DNA of 64,000 bases from a virus (lineage: Duplodnaviria; Heunggongvirae; Uroviricota; Caudoviricetes), in the IMG/VR virus record IMGVR_UViG_2529293038_000017, positions 23,342-87,341 of that record, one strand, 5' to 3'. This document shows, in pieces, positions 17,570-63,064 of this stretch. The first letter of the stretch is position 1; the number at the start of each line of letters is the position of its first letter. The position numbers and the translations under genes are program-made. The notes beneath the pieces were generated by a model. That model was not told the DNA's origin and did not search any database. It was given only the letters and a program-made list of their open reading frames with translations.

Positions 17570-17586
17570 AATGCTCTAATAAATTT
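17570..17586 (+). promoter_or_regulatory. C1-repressor-type operator upstream of immI-like operon
   Basis: AATGCTCTAATAAATTT, 1 mismatch to recalled P1 operator consensus ATTGCTCTAATAAATTT. Confidence 0.65.
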
Positions 17587-19156: not shown

Positions 19157-19233
19157 CAAAAGAAAAAACCTGCCAGCAAACTGGCAGGTTTCTGAGCAGA
19201 TCGACCAACCCGATCTGGATCGAGTTAGAAAAA

Positions 19234-19250
19234 TTTGCTCTAATAAATTT
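19234..19250 (+). promoter_or_regulatory. C1-type operator upstream of kilA
   Basis: TTTGCTCTAATAAATTT, 1 mismatch to consensus. Confidence 0.65.
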
Positions 19251-19319: not shown

Positions 19320-20120
19320 ATGCAACAAACATTCAATGCGGATATGAATATATCAAACCTTCATCAAAATGTCGATCCTTCAACCACTCTGCCTGTTATT
19401 TGTGGTGTTGAAATTACGACCGACCGAGCTGGCCGTTACAACCTTAATGCTCTACACAGAGCGAGCGGACTCGGTGCCCATAAAGCGCCAGCTCAATGGC
19501 TAAGAACGCTGTCAGCTAAACAGCTCATCGAAGAGCTTGAAAAAGAAACTATGCAGAATTGCATAGTTTCGTTCGAAGGCCGTGGCGGCGGCACTTTTGC
19601 CCATGAATTGCTCGCAGTGGAGTACGCAGGCTGGATTTCTCCCGCGTTTCGGCTGAAGGTAAACCAGACATTTATCGACTATCGAGCCGGAAGATTACAA
19701 CCTGCTATTCCGAAGAGCCTCCCAGAAGCTCTCCGTTTGGCTGCTGACCTGGCAGAGCAAAAGCAACGGCTGGAGCAAAAAATGCTGATGGATGCACCTA
19801 AAGTCGAATTCGCCGAACGCGTTGCTACCGCCAGCGGGGTTCTAATCGGCAACTATGCCAAAGTGCTCGGCCTGGGCCAAAACTATCTCTTCACCTGGTT
19901 GCGTGATAACGGAATTCTGATCGCAACCGGTGAACGCAGGAACGTCCCCAAACAAGAATACATATCCCGTGGGTATTTCACCCTTAAAGAAACCGTGATC
20001 GATACAAGCAATGGAAGCAGGATTTCTTTCACGACTCGTATAACCGGCAAAGGTCAGCAGTGGCTGATGAAGCGATTGCTTGATGCTGGTGTGCTGGTAC
20101 CTGTCGCGGCAACGCGCTAA
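19320..20120 (+). CDS. kilA: KilA-N domain protein with Ant-type C-terminal domain
   Basis: 266 aa; N-terminal KilA-N-like region; C-terminal ~130 aa homologous to Ant C-terminus. Confidence 0.75.
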   Translation: MQQTFNADMNISNLHQNVDPSTTLPVICGVEITTDRAGRYNLNALHRASGLGAHKAPAQWLRTLSAKQLIEELEKETMQNCIVSFEGRGGGTFAHELLAVEYAGWISPAFRLKVNQTFIDYRAGRLQPAIPKSLPEALRLAADLAEQKQRLEQKMLMDAPKVEFAERVATASGVLIGNYAKVLGLGQNYLFTWLRDNGILIATGERRNVPKQEYISRGYFTLKETVIDTSNGSRISFTTRITGKGQQWLMKRLLDAGVLVPVAATR

Positions 20121-27084: not shown

Positions 27085-27199
27085 GGCACTTGTGTGAATC
27101 CCTTTTCGGAAGAGATTTTATTGAAAGTCACTTGTTGACTTTCTCGTGACAAGCAATTTTTTTATTTTTTTCGGGAGTAGGGGAGGAAGGTAAAATCCA

Positions 27200-27285
27200 A
27201 GGTGAAATCGTGGCGATTTCACCTTGAAATTTTAGAGTGATTTACTTTAAAAACAGTAGGTTAATAGTGAAATTTGAATGGCGAA
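27200..27285. promoter_or_regulatory. parS partition site
   Basis: Heptamer boxes ATTTCAC/GTGAAAT and hexamer TCGCCA/TGGCGA flanking an AT-rich centre (GTGAAATCGTGGCGATTTCAC ... AGTGAAATTTGAATGGCGA), just downstream of parB. Confidence 0.8.
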
Positions 27286-35151: not shown

Positions 35152-37166
35152 AAGAGCTGTGCTATGGATCTGTTTGCAGTGGAATTGAAGCCGCGAGTAT
35201 TGCCTGGGAACCGTTGGGTATGCGTCCGGCGTGGTTTGCTGAAATCGAGCCTTTTCCATCTGCCGTTCTTGCGCACCGCTGGCCCCATGTCGCCAACCTT
35301 GGCGACATGACAAAACTTGCCAAAAAAGTCCTGGCTGGGGAAATCGAATCCCCTGATGTGCTCGTCGGGGGTACGCCTTGTCAGGCATTCAGTATCGCGG
35401 GCTTACGTGGTGGGCTTGATGATGAACGCGGCGCGCTAACTTTGAAGTATGTGGAGCTTGCAAATGCAATTGACGACAAACGGTCTGAGTCCTTCCTCAA
35501 ACCGACAGTTATCGTCTGGGAAAATGTCCCAGGAGTCCTGTCATCGGCAGATAACGCCTTCGGATGTTTCCTTGCCGGATTGGCTGGAGAAGATGCGCCA
35601 TTTGAACCAGGTGATCGACCTGAATCAGGAAAAAGTAACGCGTTCTGGCGGTGGGATGGCAAAACCGGTTGCCATGCTCCAAAGTGGCCGCAGTGTGGTT
35701 GTATTTATGGACCGCAGCGAAAGGTGGCCTGGAGAATCCTTGATGCCCAATACTTCGGAGTGGCACAACGACGCCGACGCGTGTTTGTTGTCGCAAGTGC
35801 TCGAACAGACCTCGATCCCGCAACGGTACTTTTTGAGTTCGAAGGCGTGCGCCGGAATATTGCGCCGAGCAGAGGCGAGGGGAAGGAAACTACCAGATAT
35901 ACTTCAAACATCGCTATCAGATCTTGCGATGATACAAACATAGTTGCCATGGCACATGGGCAAGGAGGGGCTGAGATAAAAACCGATAATTCGGCACCAA
36001 CTTTGACATGTAACCATGAAGCACCAATTGTATTGCTCGTCGACGGTAGAATGCGCCGTCTTATCCCTGTCGAATGTGAAAGGCTGCAAGGTTTTCCTGA
36101 TGGACATACATTGATCCCTACGGAAAAGCGTAAAAAAGTTTCTTCAGATGAACTGGCATACCTTCGCAAAAACTATCCTGATTTGAGCGAAGAAGAGGCC
36201 GCGATGCTTGCAGCTGACGGACCGCGTTACAAAGCGATCGGCAATAGTATGGCGATACCAGTAATGCGCTGGATTGGCGATCGGATTGCCAAGGCTGCAT
36301 GTCGGCAGAAGGAAGGGAGTGAAACAAAAGAGCGAAAAGTTAAACCAGCGGCAGAATTCGAACGGTCCATATTCAAATGGGCTGGTGGAAAATTTGGTGT
36401 TCTGGAACAAATCTTTCGCTATTTGCCAGAAGGGAAGCGCCTGATTGAGCCTTTCGTTGGTGGCGGAGCTGTCTTCATGAATGCCGGATACCAGGAAAAT
36501 CTGCTAAATGATGTGAATGCTGACCTGATTAACTTTTACAAGACTCTGCAACGCGAGGCGCATTCACTTATCACTCTGGCACATCGTTTCTTCCAGGACT
36601 ACAACACGCAGGAAGGATACCTGGCAGTACGGAATGCGTTTAACAAACAAGTCTATGATGATTTACATCGCGCAGCGGCGTTTTTGTTCCTGAACCGACA
36701 TTGTTTTAACGGATTGACGCGTTACAACCAAGCCGGTGAGTTCAATGTCGGTTATGGGAAGTATAAAACTCCGTATTTCCCATTGCAGGAGATGGAAGCC
36801 TTCCTTGGTGCGGAAGGGCGTTCTGAGTTTGTATGTGGTGATTTTGCTGCGGTGATTGAAGCTGCCGGAGAAGGAGATGTCATCTTTTGCGATCCGCCGT
36901 ATGAACCGCTCCCAAATACAGAGGGATTCACGAACTATTCCGGTCATGACTTTAAGTTTGAAGAGCAAAAACGCCTGGCGTCTCTGTTGACGGATGCTCA
37001 TCGCCGAGGTGCAAAGGTTCTCATTACTAACAGTGGCGCGCCAAACATCAGAGAACTTTATCAGGACAGTGGCTTCAGAGTGGAACCTCTTTTTGCCAGA
37101 CGTTCTGTGTCTTGTAAGGGGGACACTCGAGGTGTTGCTCATGACGTTATAGCAATATTGCTCTAA
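35148..37166 (+). CDS. dmt: bifunctional DNA methyltransferase: N-terminal C5-cytosine MTase fused to C-terminal Dam-like N6-adenine MTase
   Basis: [12 protein letters not shown] and ENVPG motifs in N-half; Dam motifs FKWAGGK...[10 protein letters not shown] and FCDPPYEP in C-half. Confidence 0.88.
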
Positions 37167-37184
37167 TAAATTTATTAGTGTAAT
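37157..37184. promoter_or_regulatory. bipartite C1-type operator (perfect consensus plus overlapping inverted copy)
   Basis: ATTGCTCTAATAAATTT (37157..37173) overlapping AAATTTATTAGTGTAAT (rc has 2 mismatches). Confidence 0.75.
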
Positions 37185-52474: not shown

Positions 52475-53172
52475 AGATTGCTTTAGTTCTTCGCTCTGGT
52501 GGTGACTATAACGCTTCCGATGTGCAGTGGCTGGTTAATCAACTGCCAAAAGACTATGAAATTATTTGCCTGACAGACCTGAAGTGTTTACATGTACCTG
52601 GCGTCAAAGTTATCCCATTGATCAACCAGTGGCAAAAGTGCCGTGGCTGGTGGGCGAAAATCGAGTTGTTCCGACCGGATATAACCGATGATCTGTTCTA
52701 TCTGGATTTGGACACGGTTATTGCCGGTGATATACGCCCAATCCTAGAGCATCCACCAACCAGCTTCACCATGCTTAGGGATTTTTACCATCCACAATAT
52801 CGTGGCAGCGGTGCCCTGTGGATACCAAATAGTGTTAAAGCGCATATCTGGAGTTCATTCTGGCAAGATCCGGAAGGTTGGATTTCTCGTTGTGTCACTA
52901 CTGAGTGCTGGGGTGACCAGGGGTTCTTACGAAAGGTTATGGGCGATGATACACCAGCATTTCAGGATCTGTATCCAGGATGGTTTGTAAGTTACAAGGC
53001 CGATGTTGTGGAACCTGGTTCAAAATATGCGAGCGCGCGTTACTCCAGGGGGAATGGGGCATTACCAAAAGACTGCCGAATAATCTTTTTCCACGGCAAA
53101 CCGCGACCTCGCGAAGTGTCAGAGGATTGGCTTCCCCTTATCAGCTCATTTTTTGAGCGAGAATCAGAATAA
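52471..53172 (+). CDS. putative nucleotide-sugar glycosyltransferase-like protein
   Basis: DxD-like YLDLDTVI after beta-alpha N-terminus; weak. Confidence 0.35.
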
Positions 53173-53173
53173 T

Positions 53174-53240
53174 ATTGCTCTAATAATTCCATATTTTTAA
53201 AACGTGATGTACACTCATCACGTTTTTTATTAGAGCAATC
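53174..53240. promoter_or_regulatory. two inverted C1-type operators flanking a perfect hairpin (terminator-like)
   Basis: ATTGCTCTAATAATTCC (53174..53190), hairpin AAAACGTGATG-TACACT-CATCACGTTTT (53199..53226), TTTTTTATTAGAGCAAT (53224..53240). Confidence 0.6.
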
Positions 53241-53473
53241 TACAAGGTGCACTATGTGGCCATTCCGACGGAAATATCACTACTGGCTGATCGCCTTTGT
53301 TACGCCGACCGGCGGTATCAGGCATGTCATCACCAGGTATCGCAACAAGAGACTCACCTTAGCCAGAATTTTACAGGCTGCCATAGGTGAGGGGCTGGAT
53401 ACAAATTGCGTAGTCCTTCCTCCTTCATACTTAGGAAAAATGACCGAAGCACAAGCTAATACGGAACTTTGAA

Positions 53474-54736
53474 ATGAGCACTTCAGCACAAAACCAATCA
53501 ATCGAAAATGTATCTATCCCTGACGTCCTGAATGCCGGTATCCCGGCCATTATCCAGAACATCCGGGCCGCGCAACGCCGCGTTAGTTGTGATGACCTCA
53601 CAGCGCGTTTTTTTGATAATGCGGTTCAGTCAGCGGAGATGCTTCACGCACAGCTTATTGATGTTTATAACGCAGAAGCTGATAGCCATAACTCCCTGGT
53701 AGATGCAGCTGAAAATATGCAGTTGGATCTCGGTCTGAAGGGTAAAGAAATTGAAGAGCTTCAGCTGGAAATTGAACATTTGAAACGCCAGCAACAGGAC
53801 GCGATCGACGATGCGACGCATGACGCCAACCAGCGTGCTGATAATGCCGAACGTATAAGCATTGAGCTGGAAACAAAACTCAATGAAATGACCGCGATGG
53901 TTGAACTGCGGAACTCACAGATTTCAACGCTAAAATCTCAATATAAAGAGATCATGAAACTTGATCCTTTTAACCTTGAGAAACGCTATAACAAAGCTAA
54001 AAGCGAGCGACAGGAACTGCGTAAGCAGGTCGCCGACCTTAACCAACAGCTCAAAAAAACTATTAAAGATGCAAGCGAGGCGCGCGTGGCATTTGCTAAT
54101 AAAAAAGCAGAGGTTACCGCGCTGGTTAATGAGAATGCCAAATTTGCGACGCTCAAGAAGGAAATGTATGGCATTACTGAGCGCCGTTTCCCTGCAAGCA
54201 AACTTCATCCGACGTTAGGGCAAATCTCCTTCTTCCCGCGCCTCCTGGCTTATGGGATCTCATCGCCTAAAGAGTTCAATAACGAGCGTCCTTATATCGT
54301 TTCTAAGCTGGACTTTGCTTATCAGTTCTGCTGCGACATGGGCTATGCCATTGATATCCGGATCAACGAATGGTTGATGCCAAACTTCCAGCCGTTGGCC
54401 ATTTTCCGCGAGTTCCAGCCGGAAGGTTGGGTAGAGTTCTTCCATGAATTGATCTGTAAAGAGATGGAAAGCCGCCGCCCGGAACTGGTCCGTCGAGTTG
54501 AGTGGGCGCAAGAGGTTATGTTGGCAGAGGCAGAGCTGCCGTTCGAACCGGAATTTATTGATGATCTGGCAGCTAAAGGGCTGCATACCCTGTTTGATGT
54601 GGTTACCCGCCGTCATGAGCAGTTGGTTGTCGAATTGGGTTTAGAGGAAACAGCGGCAAGAAGACTTCTCGATGTTTGCTATGCACGTAGCGATGCATGG
54701 GAAAAAGAGAACGGCGGCACTATTTACGTTCGCTGA
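53474..54736 (+). CDS. coiled-coil protein with conserved C-terminal globular domain (420 aa)
   Basis: Central heptad-rich region; gene directly downstream of operator pair. Confidence 0.55.
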   Translation: MSTSAQNQSIENVSIPDVLNAGIPAIIQNIRAAQRRVSCDDLTARFFDNAVQSAEMLHAQLIDVYNAEADSHNSLVDAAENMQLDLGLKGKEIEELQLEIEHLKRQQQDAIDDATHDANQRADNAERISIELETKLNEMTAMVELRNSQISTLKSQYKEIMKLDPFNLEKRYNKAKSERQELRKQVADLNQQLKKTIKDASEARVAFANKKAEVTALVNENAKFATLKKEMYGITERRFPASKLHPTLGQISFFPRLLAYGISSPKEFNNERPYIVSKLDFAYQFCCDMGYAIDIRINEWLMPNFQPLAIFREFQPEGWVEFFHELICKEMESRRPELVRRVEWAQEVMLAEAELPFEPEFIDDLAAKGLHTLFDVVTRRHEQLVVELGLEETAARRLLDVCYARSDAWEKENGGTIYVR

Positions 54737-54808
54737 CAGTTACAGTGTCACTTTTAATGCTGGTGGAGTGCGCCCACCAGCATTTTTTTCGTCCAATGAG
54801 GAGGGCAT

Positions 54809-55315
54809 TTGAGTATTTTCAATAAACACGCACACCAGGAACGTCCGTATATCGTCATAGTCGATATTGATGGAACAATATCAGAGGCAACTGAAGACAG
54901 ACTGCATTTGCTTCCGCCACCAGGTAAAGGTGCATTAACAAAGGACTGGAACGAGTTTAATCTCGCCTGTGACACCGATACTCCCATCACTCCAGTTATT
55001 GATATGGTGCGCCAGTTATTTAACGTTTACACGGTCTGGTTTGTAACCGGGCGCTGTGAGATCGCAAGGGATAAAACACGAGCTTGGCTGCGGAAGTACG
55101 TAACAAACGGGGCTGAGCCTTTGCTATCTATGCGTCCTGCCACCGATGACAGAAATGACGGCCCAGCAAAGATTGATCTCCTTAAGAAAATTGGTCTAAG
55201 TAAAATCGCGTTCGCGCTGGAAGATAAGATTGAAGTGGCGCGTGTTTTCAGGAGTCACGGCGTACTTACGTTAATGGTCAGGGAGTATGAAAACGCGCTT
55301 CTTCATCAGCAATAA
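54809..55315 (+). CDS. HAD-superfamily phosphatase-like protein
   Basis: Motif I IVIVDIDGTISE; TTG start in track after GAGGAGGG. Confidence 0.45.
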   Translation: MSIFNKHAHQERPYIVIVDIDGTISEATEDRLHLLPPPGKGALTKDWNEFNLACDTDTPITPVIDMVRQLFNVYTVWFVTGRCEIARDKTRAWLRKYVTNGAEPLLSMRPATDDRNDGPAKIDLLKKIGLSKIAFALEDKIEVARVFRSHGVLTLMVREYENALLHQQ

Positions 55316-55331
55316 TTGCTCTAATAAATCT
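55315..55331 (+). promoter_or_regulatory. C1-type operator
   Basis: ATTGCTCTAATAAATCT, 1 mismatch. Confidence 0.6.
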
Positions 55332-55413
55332 TGATTTTTAAAACAGAGAAAGTGAAAATAAAAACATGCCGCAAGGCGCGGCATGTATCCAATCAATCAC
55401 AGGAGCTGAAAAT

Positions 55414-55500
55414 ATGAACACGGCATTCAAAATCATTATGGCCGCGATCTATTTCTGGCTGTTCTCTATCACTTTTGGCGGCATCGTCGCGCATGGGTAA
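55414..55500 (+). CDS. 28-aa hydrophobic peptide (candidate small membrane protein/toxin-like)
   Basis: MNTAFKIIMAAIYFWLFSITFGGIVAHG; AGGAG 9 nt upstream; below track cutoff. Confidence 0.3.
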   Translation: MNTAFKIIMAAIYFWLFSITFGGIVAHG

Positions 55501-62432: not shown

Positions 62433-63064
62433 CCAGAATCACTGAAGAGCGCATATCAGAGATTATTTCCCGTATCGAAATGTATGGTCACGGTGCTGGA
62501 TATACGGCAGATGAAGTATTGGAAATAGCCCAGCAGATGCTGGCCTTGAGACAAAAAGAGCAACATGAAAGTAATACGTGTAGATTGAATTTTGAGCATT
62601 GGCTGGAACAGCAACGCGGAAAAATCGATGTGGACTGTGGTTGTGTGTCCACTGAAACATTCATGCACTGGCTGTGGGTAGCTTACGAGGCTGGCAACTA
62701 TCCGGATATTCCGGATAGTTCGGTGCCAGCGCCAGGAAAGGGCGTCACCGGTGAACGTATCCGCATTAAGCCGCATGTTTATCGCGAACTGGTTAACCGT
62801 CTCCACGATACAGCGATCAAGTGTGCTGGCACCCAGCAATTACGAGAAAGAATTAGCCGTGTTTTGGGCGACGTTATTACACCAGATCATCATAAACAAG
62901 CCGAGAAAAGTGACCTGGAAAGGTGTCACCTTGAGGCGGCATTAAACATTAAGCCGGGGCATACGCTTGGCATTATTGATGCACTATTGGTTCATAAGAT
63001 GGCCAGGGCTTTATTGCCGCTGGTGGCTGAAAAGCATGAGGTGGACCATGCCAACGAAAGCTGA
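62414..63064 (+). CDS. hypothetical protein (216 aa)
   Basis: ORF in operon. Confidence 0.45.
   Translation: MAQKEMTRITEERISEIISRIEMYGHGAGYTADEVLEIAQQMLALRQKEQHESNTCRLNFEHWLEQQRGKIDVDCGCVSTETFMHWLWVAYEAGNYPDIPDSSVPAPGKGVTGERIRIKPHVYRELVNRLHDTAIKCAGTQQLRERISRVLGDVITPDHHKQAEKSDLERCHLEAALNIKPGHTLGIIDALLVHKMARALLPLVAEKHEVDHANES

Follow-up and report, generated by a model that had tools for sequence, protein, structure and literature searches.

A conserved hairpin bracketed by C1 operators at the pmgQ/pmgR junction of a P1-like phage, a candidate terminator overlapping the next promoter

Results

Identity and gene layout of the locus

The DNA analyzed here is a 64,000-nucleotide stretch of a viral record (the window), and its sequence identifies it as a P1-like phage, the locus of interest being the junction of pmgQ and pmgR of phage P1. 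Identity to P1 DNA is 98.6% over 3.3 kb and 100% over positions 53120-53300, the 181 bp around the element, and the encoded proteins differ from those of P1 by one residue in PmgQ and by four in each of PmgS and Pap, while PmgR is 100% identical. The genes of the region, and the signals between and after them, are:

52471-53172, + strand: pmgQ, last gene of the C1-controlled pmgN-pmgQ operon (ORF list, P1 annotation)
53254-53472, + strand: pmgR, 72 aa, named shtA in P7 (ORF list, P1 and P7 annotation)
53474-54736, + strand: pmgS, 420 aa, named shtB in P7 (ORF list, P1 and P7 annotation)
54756-54789, + strand: terminator-like hairpin (54756-54784) plus a run of seven T between pmgS and pap (terminator scan, fold)
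54809-55315, + strand: pap, 168 aa, HAD-family phosphatase of the polynucleotide kinase-phosphatase type (Pfam, P1 annotation)
55331-55359, + strand: P1pmgT promoter, -35 TTGATT at 55331-55336, 17-bp spacer, -10 GAAAAT at 55354-55359 (P1 record)

The gap between pmgQ and pmgR is 81 bp. The corresponding P1 stretch has its annotated genes on the + strand, the one exception being lxr, some 4.6 kb farther right, and the c1 gene (93231-94082 of the P1 record) falls just past the right end of the window. The upstream operon has its own C1 operator, Op83, at 50457-50473. pmgR is essential for infectious virions, and its mutant leaves heads and tails unjoined (PMC9024508), while pmgS is non-essential by CRISPRi and by deletion, and is dispensable for plaques (PMC10695390).

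The initial annotation had described the region to the right of the junction as a cassette of two genes, a coiled-coil protein and a HAD-like phosphatase, ending at an operator at 55315. There are three genes, since pmgR, between the junction operators and the 420-aa gene, had been overlooked, and the operator at 55315 (Op88) belongs to the next operon, where it precedes a conserved TTGATT-17-nAAAAT promoter. The phosphatase assignment was borne out by a match of Pap to the Pfam family PF25109 HAD_PNKP (E = 7.8e-12); PmgS matched no Pfam family above threshold, and its coiled coil derives from a note in the P1 record. Comparison with relatives shows that pap is a variable accessory gene, absent in L011 and L012 and preceded by extra genes in L003 and L005, and that, no matter which gene the unit finishes with, Op88 comes next in every relative, with the -35, -10 and spacing of P1pmgT conserved in five of them. 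A leader hairpin lies beyond that promoter at 55364-55386. The hairpin between pmgS and pap, with 11 pairs of which 6 are G-C and a fold energy of -18.1 kcal/mol, is the top match of the terminator scan; JK004 and L009 have one at the same position with different arm sequences, and L003 and L005 have none.

C1 operators at the junction

The C1 operator is a 17-bp asymmetric site with the consensus ATTGCTCTAATAAATTT, and 22 such sites have been counted in P1 (PMC8546580). Three concern us here, each a protein_bind feature in both the P1 record (AF234172) and the P7 record (AF503408):

53174-53190, + strand: Op86a (OpmgRa; Op(sht[a]) in P7), ATTGCTCTAATAATTCC, 3 mismatches to the P1 consensus
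53223-53239, - strand: Op86b (OpmgRb; Op(sht[b]) in P7), ATTGCTCTAATAAAAAA, 3 mismatches
55315-55331, + strand: Op88 (OpmgT; Op(hea) in P7), 1 mismatch

Comparison with the P1 operator map supports the proposal that these sites are of C1 type, as they coincide with OpmgRa, OpmgRb and OpmgT in DNA that is 100% identical to P1. The two junction sites do match the operator and are inverted, as had been noted, although the second lies at 53223-53239 rather than at 53224-53240. A search with the consensus found the core GCTCTAATAA intact in all three, and over the whole window detected nine matches with at most 3 mismatches, where 0.25 are expected and none of 100 shuffles reached nine. By these matches, Op86a, Op86b and Op88 are members of the C1-controlled operator class of P1, with C1 binding predicted.

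Op86a is present in all P1-type relatives, and the core of Op86b is conserved there, always 49 bp from Op86a. This start-to-start offset was found in the window and in JK004, L003, L009, L011 and L013; in L003 it is kept even though one nucleotide has been inserted on the left, because one has been lost on the right. The P1 record calls Op86a and Op86b each monovalent, and since the 49-bp spacing is identical in all P1-type relatives, as expected where distance is constrained, C1 may bind the pair cooperatively. In distant relatives whose operator sequence is different, inverted repeats likewise bracket a -10-like hexamer.

A hairpin preserved by compensatory change

Between the operators, and running into Op86b, lies a hairpin at 53199-53226 with a perfect 11-bp stem (53199-53209 paired with 53216-53226) and a 6-nt loop at 53210-53215, reading AAAACGTGATG-TACACT-CATCACGTTTT and starting 27 nt after the pmgQ stop codon. 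Its fold energy is -13.4 kcal/mol, with z-scores of -5.4 (+ strand) and -4.8 (- strand), and perfect hairpins whose stems reach 11 bp or more number seven in the window, compared to 0.1 per first-order shuffle. The perfect stem had been noticed in the initial annotation, which also described A-run and T-run flanks; these runs are the outer four stem pairs themselves, leaving a G+C-containing core of 7 bp in a stem that is A/U-rich (4 of 11 pairs are G-C). The T-run also forms the 3' half of Op86b. The hairpin is annotated in neither the P1 nor the P7 record, an absence that is uninformative because no terminator feature appears anywhere in the part of the P1 record examined, roughly 12 kb. The stretch contains no Rfam family, the only match being a sub-threshold one to GcvB at 55358-55441.

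To follow the hairpin through sequence change, seven distinct versions were assembled from relatives whose PmgS is 53-71% identical. In this set, 94.8% of alignment cells retain pairing, and at 4 of the 11 pairs both sides have changed in a compensatory way, values reached by only 2-7 of 500 shuffles. L013 retains a hairpin in a shifted register, and P1 and L011 carry it as a perfect palindrome, with equal fold energy on both strands. The apical TGrTGTAnnnTC is its most conserved part; within it, T1, A2 and T6 of the loop do not vary among the seven versions, giving a -10-like hexamer, TAnnnT. Judged by this pattern, which comes from only seven distinct sequences, the hairpin is a real, selected structure that is preserved by compensatory change.

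Pattern scans of viral contigs gave 44 matches, 6 of them real, and those of metagenomes gave 1 real and 1 probable chance match, while the pattern used for genome contigs, TCTAATAAN{38,46}ATTAGA, was too loose and returned 120 chance matches in unrelated genomes. The P1-like copies, taken as the best 80 found with a PmgS alignment and all near-identical, were used only for polymorphism; their single-base hairpin variants include three A.C, two transversion mismatches and four G.U, a mixture that speaks against the model preferred below. Plasmid copies number roughly 690.

Position of the pmgR promoter

Two placements of the promoter were compared:

53175-53203, + strand: PpmgR as predicted in the P1 record, -35 TTGCTC at 53175-53180, -10 TAAAAC at 53198-53203
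53187-53215, + strand: alternative candidate pmgR promoter, weak -35 TTCCAT at 53187-53192, 17-bp spacer, -10 TACACT at 53210-53215 (the hairpin loop), predicted start near G53222

In relatives, the promoter scan calls TTGATT-16-TATTAT (L003) and TTTACT-16-TATCAT (JK004), both with 9 of 12 matches and both with the loop as -10. In the window itself, neither promoter was called; the P1 hexamers TACACT and TTCCAT are both weak, and TTCCAT-17-TACACT scores below threshold.

If the deposited annotation is right, the -35 lies inside Op86a, transcripts would start near 53210 in the loop, Op86b would sit at about +14 to +30, and the hairpin would be either the upstream terminator or an accident. This arrangement has the authority of the P1 record, its TAAAAC is common to P1 and L011, and the same TTGCTC-17-TA(A/T)(A/G)(A/T)(C/G) arrangement, preceded by a T-run, also follows the operators at 17570, 19234, 33881 and 55315. 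However, the annotated -10 is without its final T in every lineage, and relatives read TGAAGC, TGCGGC or TAAAGG there, so that even the TA is lost in JK004 and L009 (TGAAGC) and in L013 (TGCGGC). At Op88, moreover, conservation extends to TTGATT-17-nAAAAT but not to the equivalent hexamer, and the scan does not call the annotated PpmgR. We therefore regard it as unlikely, if still the most serious competitor, and suggest that the annotated -10, which lies 12 bp to the left of the loop hexamer, is probably misplaced by that distance. With either placement, a promoter would lie between the operators, as in ordinary repression, and the earlier view that it is unusual for a terminator to be flanked by repressor sites is not supported.

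Other candidates near the junction were dropped. The -22 box of the P1 late (Lpa-dependent) promoter LPhot, AAGTTACTT, is absent from the junction; a leader-attenuator, as proposed for P1 ref, needs a start upstream of 53199, where no conserved -10 or -35 could be read; and the leftward promoter ATGATA-18-TAAAAT that the scan gives for JK004 and L011 does not occur in P1.

Direction of termination

The feature considered as the end of the upstream transcript is:

53199-53228, + strand: hairpin with T-run at 53223-53228, proposed rightward intrinsic terminator of the pmgN-pmgQ transcript (fold, covariation)

The initial annotation had suggested that this hairpin could stop transcription in both directions, a suggestion that the relatives do not uphold. 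The fold of the + strand RNA is -13.4 to -16.5 kcal/mol in all nine relatives, while that of the - strand weakens to as little as -5.8 kcal/mol in several. Non-Watson-Crick cells, read on the + strand, comprise 13 G.U and 1 A.C, so only the + strand RNA structure has been kept, and bidirectional termination is unsupported. Nor are the flanks equivalent in the two directions, because the 7-bp core is followed by TTTTTTAT on the + strand and only by TTTTAAAA on the - strand. The neighbouring genes all lie on the + strand, and we found neither a hairpin with U-tracts on both strands nor the converging transcription that a bidirectional terminator would serve.

These observations bear on a model in which there is no promoter at the junction, pmgR and pmgS are transcribed by read-through from PpmgN, and the passage of polymerase is set by C1, perhaps looped, sitting to either side of a bidirectional terminator. 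The palindromic hairpin of P1 and L011, the overlap of Op86b with the T-run, the invariant 49-bp spacing and the silence of the promoter scan in the window would all be expected from such a model. It is improbable, however, because the - strand structure and tail are not conserved, no nearby leftward gene needs termination, and the -10-like loop is conserved, with promoters called in relatives. In a lysogen, control of read-through would also be redundant, since Op83 already places the upstream operon under C1 repression.

The sequence after the stem varies among lineages. Most have TTTTTT or CTTTTT directly after it; L003, L005 and L253 have no U-run and keep a hairpin of -16 kcal/mol, which for lack of that run does not qualify as a canonical terminator. 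A consensus terminator scan of both strands of the window did not report the hairpin at 53199-53226, and our search of the full-text literature for a start-site or terminator map of P1 found none. A hairpin that persists where the U-run is wholly absent could instead be an RNA stability or processing element, such as a protective 3' stem-loop of the pmgQ message or an RNase III site. The U-run right after the stem in most lineages speaks against this, although it is weak evidence either way, as in P1 the run doubles as an operator half, and we consider such a role quite improbable. Least probable of all is that the inverted repeat works as double-stranded DNA, either as a dimeric-regulator site centred on the -10 or as a cruciform, for although the apical sequence is the best-conserved stretch and distant relatives have protein-binding inverted repeats (operators) at the equivalent position, half-site sequences vary freely with pairing kept, L013 keeps a hairpin while shifting register, imperfect pairs appear as G.T on a single strand, a bias not to be expected of a DNA palindrome, and the late-promoter box is not matched. 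Most likely, the hairpin halts transcription one way only, rightward out of the upstream genes, and overlaps the promoter that follows.

Discussion

A compact junction with overlapping signals

We think it somewhat probable that the pmgQ-pmgR gap is a compact junction at which the rightward terminator of pmgN-pmgQ overlaps a C1-controlled pmgR promoter, flanked by Op86a and Op86b. Its 81 bp would then stack four signals. The hairpin and U-run, in RNA from the pmgN-pmgQ operon, would end that RNA, in the rightward direction only. The pmgR promoter would most likely use the hairpin loop TACACT as its -10, and because its transcripts would start near 53222 and leave out the left arm, they would escape the terminator. 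Op86a would lie at about -48 to -32, overlapping the -35, and Op86b at about +2 to +18, across both the start site and the U-run. With both operators occupied in a lysogen, C1, aided by Lxc, would shut the pmgR promoter, and it could also block polymerase entering from the left; because Op86b covers the hairpin T-run, C1 bound there could reinforce termination. After induction, pmgN to pmgQ, pmgR-pmgS(-pap), and pmgT onwards would be expected to fire as separate early units.

A more specific form of this proposal is offered tentatively. One 28-nt hairpin may have a triple role, as the upstream terminator, with its loop as the -10 of the next promoter and its U-run as half of a C1 operator, and the inverted C1 sites, at exactly 49 bp, may form one cooperative unit that silences the promoter and roadblocks polymerase at the terminator. 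The layout would then be one that is kept, with changing sequence, across P1-like phage-plasmids, and the operator-bracketed -10 one that persists even with a different repressor specificity, as in L008 and L264.

The junction adds little to existing knowledge. GenBank entries for P1 and P7 have listed its operators, promoter prediction and genes for twenty years, and the arrangement is an ordinary one for P1. What may be new is a previously unannotated hairpin that appears to be under selection as a rightward RNA structure, the probable 12-bp displacement of the annotated PpmgR -10, and the fixed 49-bp spacing of Op86a and Op86b. Few P1 genes are, like pmgR, essential and still lacking an assigned role (PMC9024508), and P1 engineering relies on gene-essentiality maps that are affected by polarity (PMC10695390), so a correct map of transcript starts and stops here would be of some practical use, for example in planning deletions or insertions within pmgN-pmgQ and pmgS-pap, two stretches that are non-essential.

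Comparison with known systems

The nearest counterparts are the P1 operators Op86a/Op86b with PpmgR, and Op88, and the P7 operators Op(sht[a]), Op(sht[b]) and Op(hea), which have the same positions, sequence and flanking genes (pmgQ, pmgR, pmgS and pap). The element itself does not differ from these records; our description departs from them in adding the hairpin and in placing the proposed -10 to the right of the annotated one.

Within P1, the bivalent operators, such as Oc1ab (formerly Op99a,b), likewise place two inverted C1 sites on one promoter, and one is also present in the window at 37157-37184. Their 17-mers overlap at an offset of 11 bp, whereas the junction sites, separated by 49 bp, enclose a promoter and hairpin. 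At P4cre/Oc1e and P1pmgT/Op88, the operator ends where the -35 begins, and the pmgR promoter of L003 (operator, then TTGATT-16-TATTAT) is arranged exactly so. Those two promoters have a single operator, in contrast to the pmgR junction, where a second, inverted operator lies over the proposed start site.

Dual-operator repression with DNA looping is known from lac O1/O3 and gal OE/OI, and C1-mediated looping at the P1 c1 region was reportedly described by Heinzel and colleagues in 1994; our full-text literature search on Op86/Op88 and C1 looping found nothing relevant, and the experimental standing of Op86 is taken from the GenBank notes. These systems share with the junction two repressor sites at a fixed distance around a promoter, but a centre-to-centre distance of 49 bp is very short for a loop, and C1 binds its asymmetric sites as a monomer.

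An intrinsic (Rho-independent) terminator overlapping the next promoter is a general arrangement in bacteria and phages. The junction hairpin resembles such terminators in having a stem-loop and U-run directly after a stop codon and arms that covary, and it differs from them in its A/U-rich stem, its -10-like loop, and a U-run that is also a repressor half-site and has been lost in one lineage.

Identity of the element with P1

The 81-bp gap between pmgQ and pmgR holds two inverted C1-type operators with a hairpin between them, and the operators, genes and promoter prediction of this region are already known. Identity to P1 is 98.6% over 3.3 kb around the element and 100% over the 181 bases across it (to P7, 99.4% over 96% of the 3.3 kb), and the element is the P1 Op86/PpmgR region itself, not merely related to it. 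Compared with the P1 operator map, all three sites of the initial annotation match annotated operators, OpmgRa, OpmgRb and OpmgT (Op(sht[a]), Op(sht[b]) and Op(hea) in the P7 record), although the second had been placed one base off. P1 carries 22 C1 operators with a 17-bp asymmetric consensus, and Lxc is a co-repressor (PMC8546580). With up to 3 mismatches allowed, this consensus has 9 matches in the window against 0.25 expected; the annotated operator Op83/Oppp, also present, escapes that search because it has 4 mismatches.

Features of the element and its surroundings
50457-50473, minus strand: annotated P1 operator Op83/Oppp, CATGCACTAATTAATTT
53174-53190, plus strand: C1 operator OpmgRa (former Op86a), ATTGCTCTAATAATTCC; sequence and P1 record
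53175-53180 (-35), 53198-53203 (-10): PpmgR, predicted sigma-70 promoter; P1 record
53199-53226: hairpin, perfect 11-bp stem and 6-nt loop, AAAACGTGATG / TACACT / CATCACGTTTT
53223-53228: six-T run; sequence
53223-53239, minus strand: C1 operator OpmgRb (former Op86b), ATTGCTCTAATAAAAAA; sequence and P1 record
53254-53472: pmgR, 72 aa; ORF and P1 annotation
53474-54736: pmgS, 420 aa; ORF and P1 annotation
54756-54784, then T7: terminator-like site between pmgS and pap, the region's best (-18.1 kcal/mol)
54809-55315: pap, 168 aa; ORF and P1 annotation
55315-55331: C1 operator OpmgT (former Op88), ATTGCTCTAATAAATCT, followed by two predicted promoters; sequence and P1 record

Conservation of the hairpin

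The perfect 11-bp stem noticed initially was confirmed, folding at -13.4 kcal/mol on either strand (z about -5). The window has 7 perfect hairpins of this size (stem of at least 11 bp), whereas shuffles give 0.1; given these values and the operator count, operators and hairpin are real and not chance. The hairpin is unannotated in the P1 and P7 records, which means little because no terminator feature was seen in the ∼12 kb of the P1 record examined. An Rfam search found no family. Another five perfect hairpins, each with a stem of 11 bp or longer, lie at 19166-19191, 19545-19570, 27198-27226, 44700-44726 and 62696-62720; the first of them precedes the operator at 19234 by 43 bp, forming another hairpin-then-operator junction.

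Relatives were found through homologues of PmgS (71-53% identical, and one more at 27%) in contigs from Cronobacter, Salmonella and metagenomes, with a few more from pattern scans. The order of elements 5' of the pmgR homologue is constant in all P1-type relatives: a plus-strand operator, ∼19-20 A/T-rich bases and an 11-bp inverted repeat with a 6-nt loop, then usually TTTTTT, followed by the inverted operator and a ribosome-binding site. When the 7 distinct hairpin versions were aligned, 94.8% of cells were paired in the given register and 4 pairs had changes on both sides; of 500 column shuffles, just 2-7 reached the observed covariation measures. The four unpaired cells are all from one locus, L013, which folds in a shifted register instead (-16.5 kcal/mol). 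Because pairing is kept through double-sided changes and this register shift, the hairpin is under selection for its structure rather than for any one sequence.

Direction of the proposed terminator

Termination in both directions, as initially proposed, is not supported, since the plus-strand RNA fold is kept at -13.4 to -16.5 kcal/mol in all nine relatives while the minus-strand fold drops to -5.8 to -11 kcal/mol in six of them, non-Watson-Crick cells are G.U in 13 cases and A.C in 1, the tails past the 7-bp core in the window are unequal (TTTTTTAT rightward, TTTTAAAA leftward), and the annotated neighbors are all on the plus strand. The perfect two-way symmetry of the P1 hairpin is thus incidental, and the hairpin's role as a conserved rightward RNA structure would be a new but minor point. 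The stem has just four G-C pairs, and a consensus terminator scan of the window does not list it. The L003/L005/L253 lineage keeps the hairpin without the U-run, and single-contig variants among P1-like sequences show both G.U and A.C changes.

Placement of the pmgR promoter

The annotated PpmgR remains a live alternative, since its TTGCTC-17-TAnnn(C/G) pattern also stands after four more of the window's operators, but its -10, TAAAAC, lacks the final T and is not kept in relatives, which read TGAAGC, TGCGGC or TAAAGG. We infer instead a promoter at 53187-53215 starting near G53222, because the hairpin loop (TACACT, TATCAT or TATTAT) is invariant at positions 1, 2 and 6, and a promoter scan called the loop as -10 in L003 (TTGATT-16-TATTAT) and JK004 (TTTACT-16-TATCAT), though not in P1 or L011, where the -35 is weak. 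This placement also draws on two far more distant relatives, in which another inverted repeat (..ATACTAATT..) at the equivalent place flanks a -10-like hexamer on both sides (in L008 the call is TTTACA-17-GATATT; a Citrobacter plasmid has TATCAT), and on operator-abutting layouts: at P4cre of the P1 record the operator ends where the -35 begins, as it does at Op88, with TTGATT-17-nAAAAT conserved across relatives. Op86a would then lie at about -48 to -32 and Op86b at about +2 to +18, and the annotated -10 probably needs a 12-bp correction, again new but minor. The inverted 12-15-mers around the hexamer in the distant relatives, AAGATACTAATTTAT / ACCATACTAATT (L008 3704-3750; L264, Citrobacter freundii plasmid NZ_CP056338, 1730-1774), probably serve as operators for a diverged C1-like repressor whose specificity is different.

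The plus-strand operators at 17570, 19234, 33881, 53174 and 55315 share a continuation of two bases then TTTT(T), and the hexamers exactly 17 bp past their TTGCTC are TAAGTC, TAAGTG, TATGTC or (twice) TAAAAC. This conserved sequence is either an odd C1-controlled -10 without the final T, or a repressor or co-repressor contact beyond the 17 bp.

Genes and the third operator

The supposed two-gene cassette has three genes, pmgR, pmgS and pap. The pmgR product is 100% identical to that of P1, where pmgR belongs to a group of five genes newly recognised as essential and where its deletion leaves heads and tails unjoined (PMC9024508); pmgS was scored non-essential (PMC10695390), and PmgS matched no Pfam family above threshold. 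Pap matches HAD_PNKP, the phosphatase domain of polynucleotide kinase-phosphatase (E 7.8e-12), bearing out the predicted HAD-like phosphatase. A pmgS homologue in MH160767.1 / NC_050153.1 (phage vB_EcoM-Ro157c2YLVW) is named 'L: RNA-directed RNA polymerase L', a label evidently transferred in error. The cargo from pmgS to the next operator is variable: pap alone in P1, an extra 101-aa gene and pap in L003, an Rv2179c-like exonuclease, the 101-aa gene and pap in L005, and nothing in L011/L012.

The operator at 55315-55331 had been read as the cassette's end. In relatives, an Op88-type site lies directly 3' of whichever gene is last, pap (JK004, L003, L005, L009) or pmgS (L011, L012, L013, all without pap), and always ahead of a conserved promoter. 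Op88 opens the next operon rather than closing the pmgR-pmgS-pap unit.

Just past the conserved TTGATT-17-GAAAAT promoter, where the transcript of the pmgT operon is predicted to begin, lies a hairpin (55364-55386) with counterparts downstream of the Op88-type operator in L002, L003, L009, L011 and L013. Its arms differ in each lineage with pairing kept, so that it resembles a 5' leader stem-loop that covaries; a scan listed it as a minus-strand terminator, but relatives have not kept the T-run of that strand. Between Op88 and pmgT lies a small hydrophobic ORF of 28 aa, MNTAFKIIMAAIYFWLFSITFGGIVAHG (55414-55500, plus strand; AGGAG ribosome-binding site), at a position without a CDS in the P1 record (AF234172); in JK004, L009 and L011 a similar ORF starts after the same conserved CAATCAATCA..GGAGC motif.

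Proposed mechanism and comparison with other systems

The gap forms a compact junction where two C1-controlled early operons meet. In a lysogen, C1 on Op83, Op86a/b and Op88 would silence all three units. With C1 inactivated, the hairpin and U-run would stop transcripts coming from PpmgN, and the pmgR promoter would fire from within the hairpin. Its transcripts would lack the left arm, could not form the hairpin, and would continue to the terminator-like site behind pmgS, some of them reading on into pap. Because Op86b overlaps the U-run and the Op86a/Op86b offset is 49 bp in every lineage, one with compensating +1/-1 indels, a C1 roadblock or a cooperative C1 pair at Op86a/b is possible. The fixed spacing is a further new but minor point, and the full triple overlap of terminator, promoter and operator with cooperative C1 binding is a tentative reading, somewhat more apt to be wrong than right.

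C1-mediated looping occurs at the c1 locus. In the bivalent operators of P1 the two 17-mers overlap, and in that respect the Op86a/Op86b pair differs from them; its likeness is to dual-operator repression in general.
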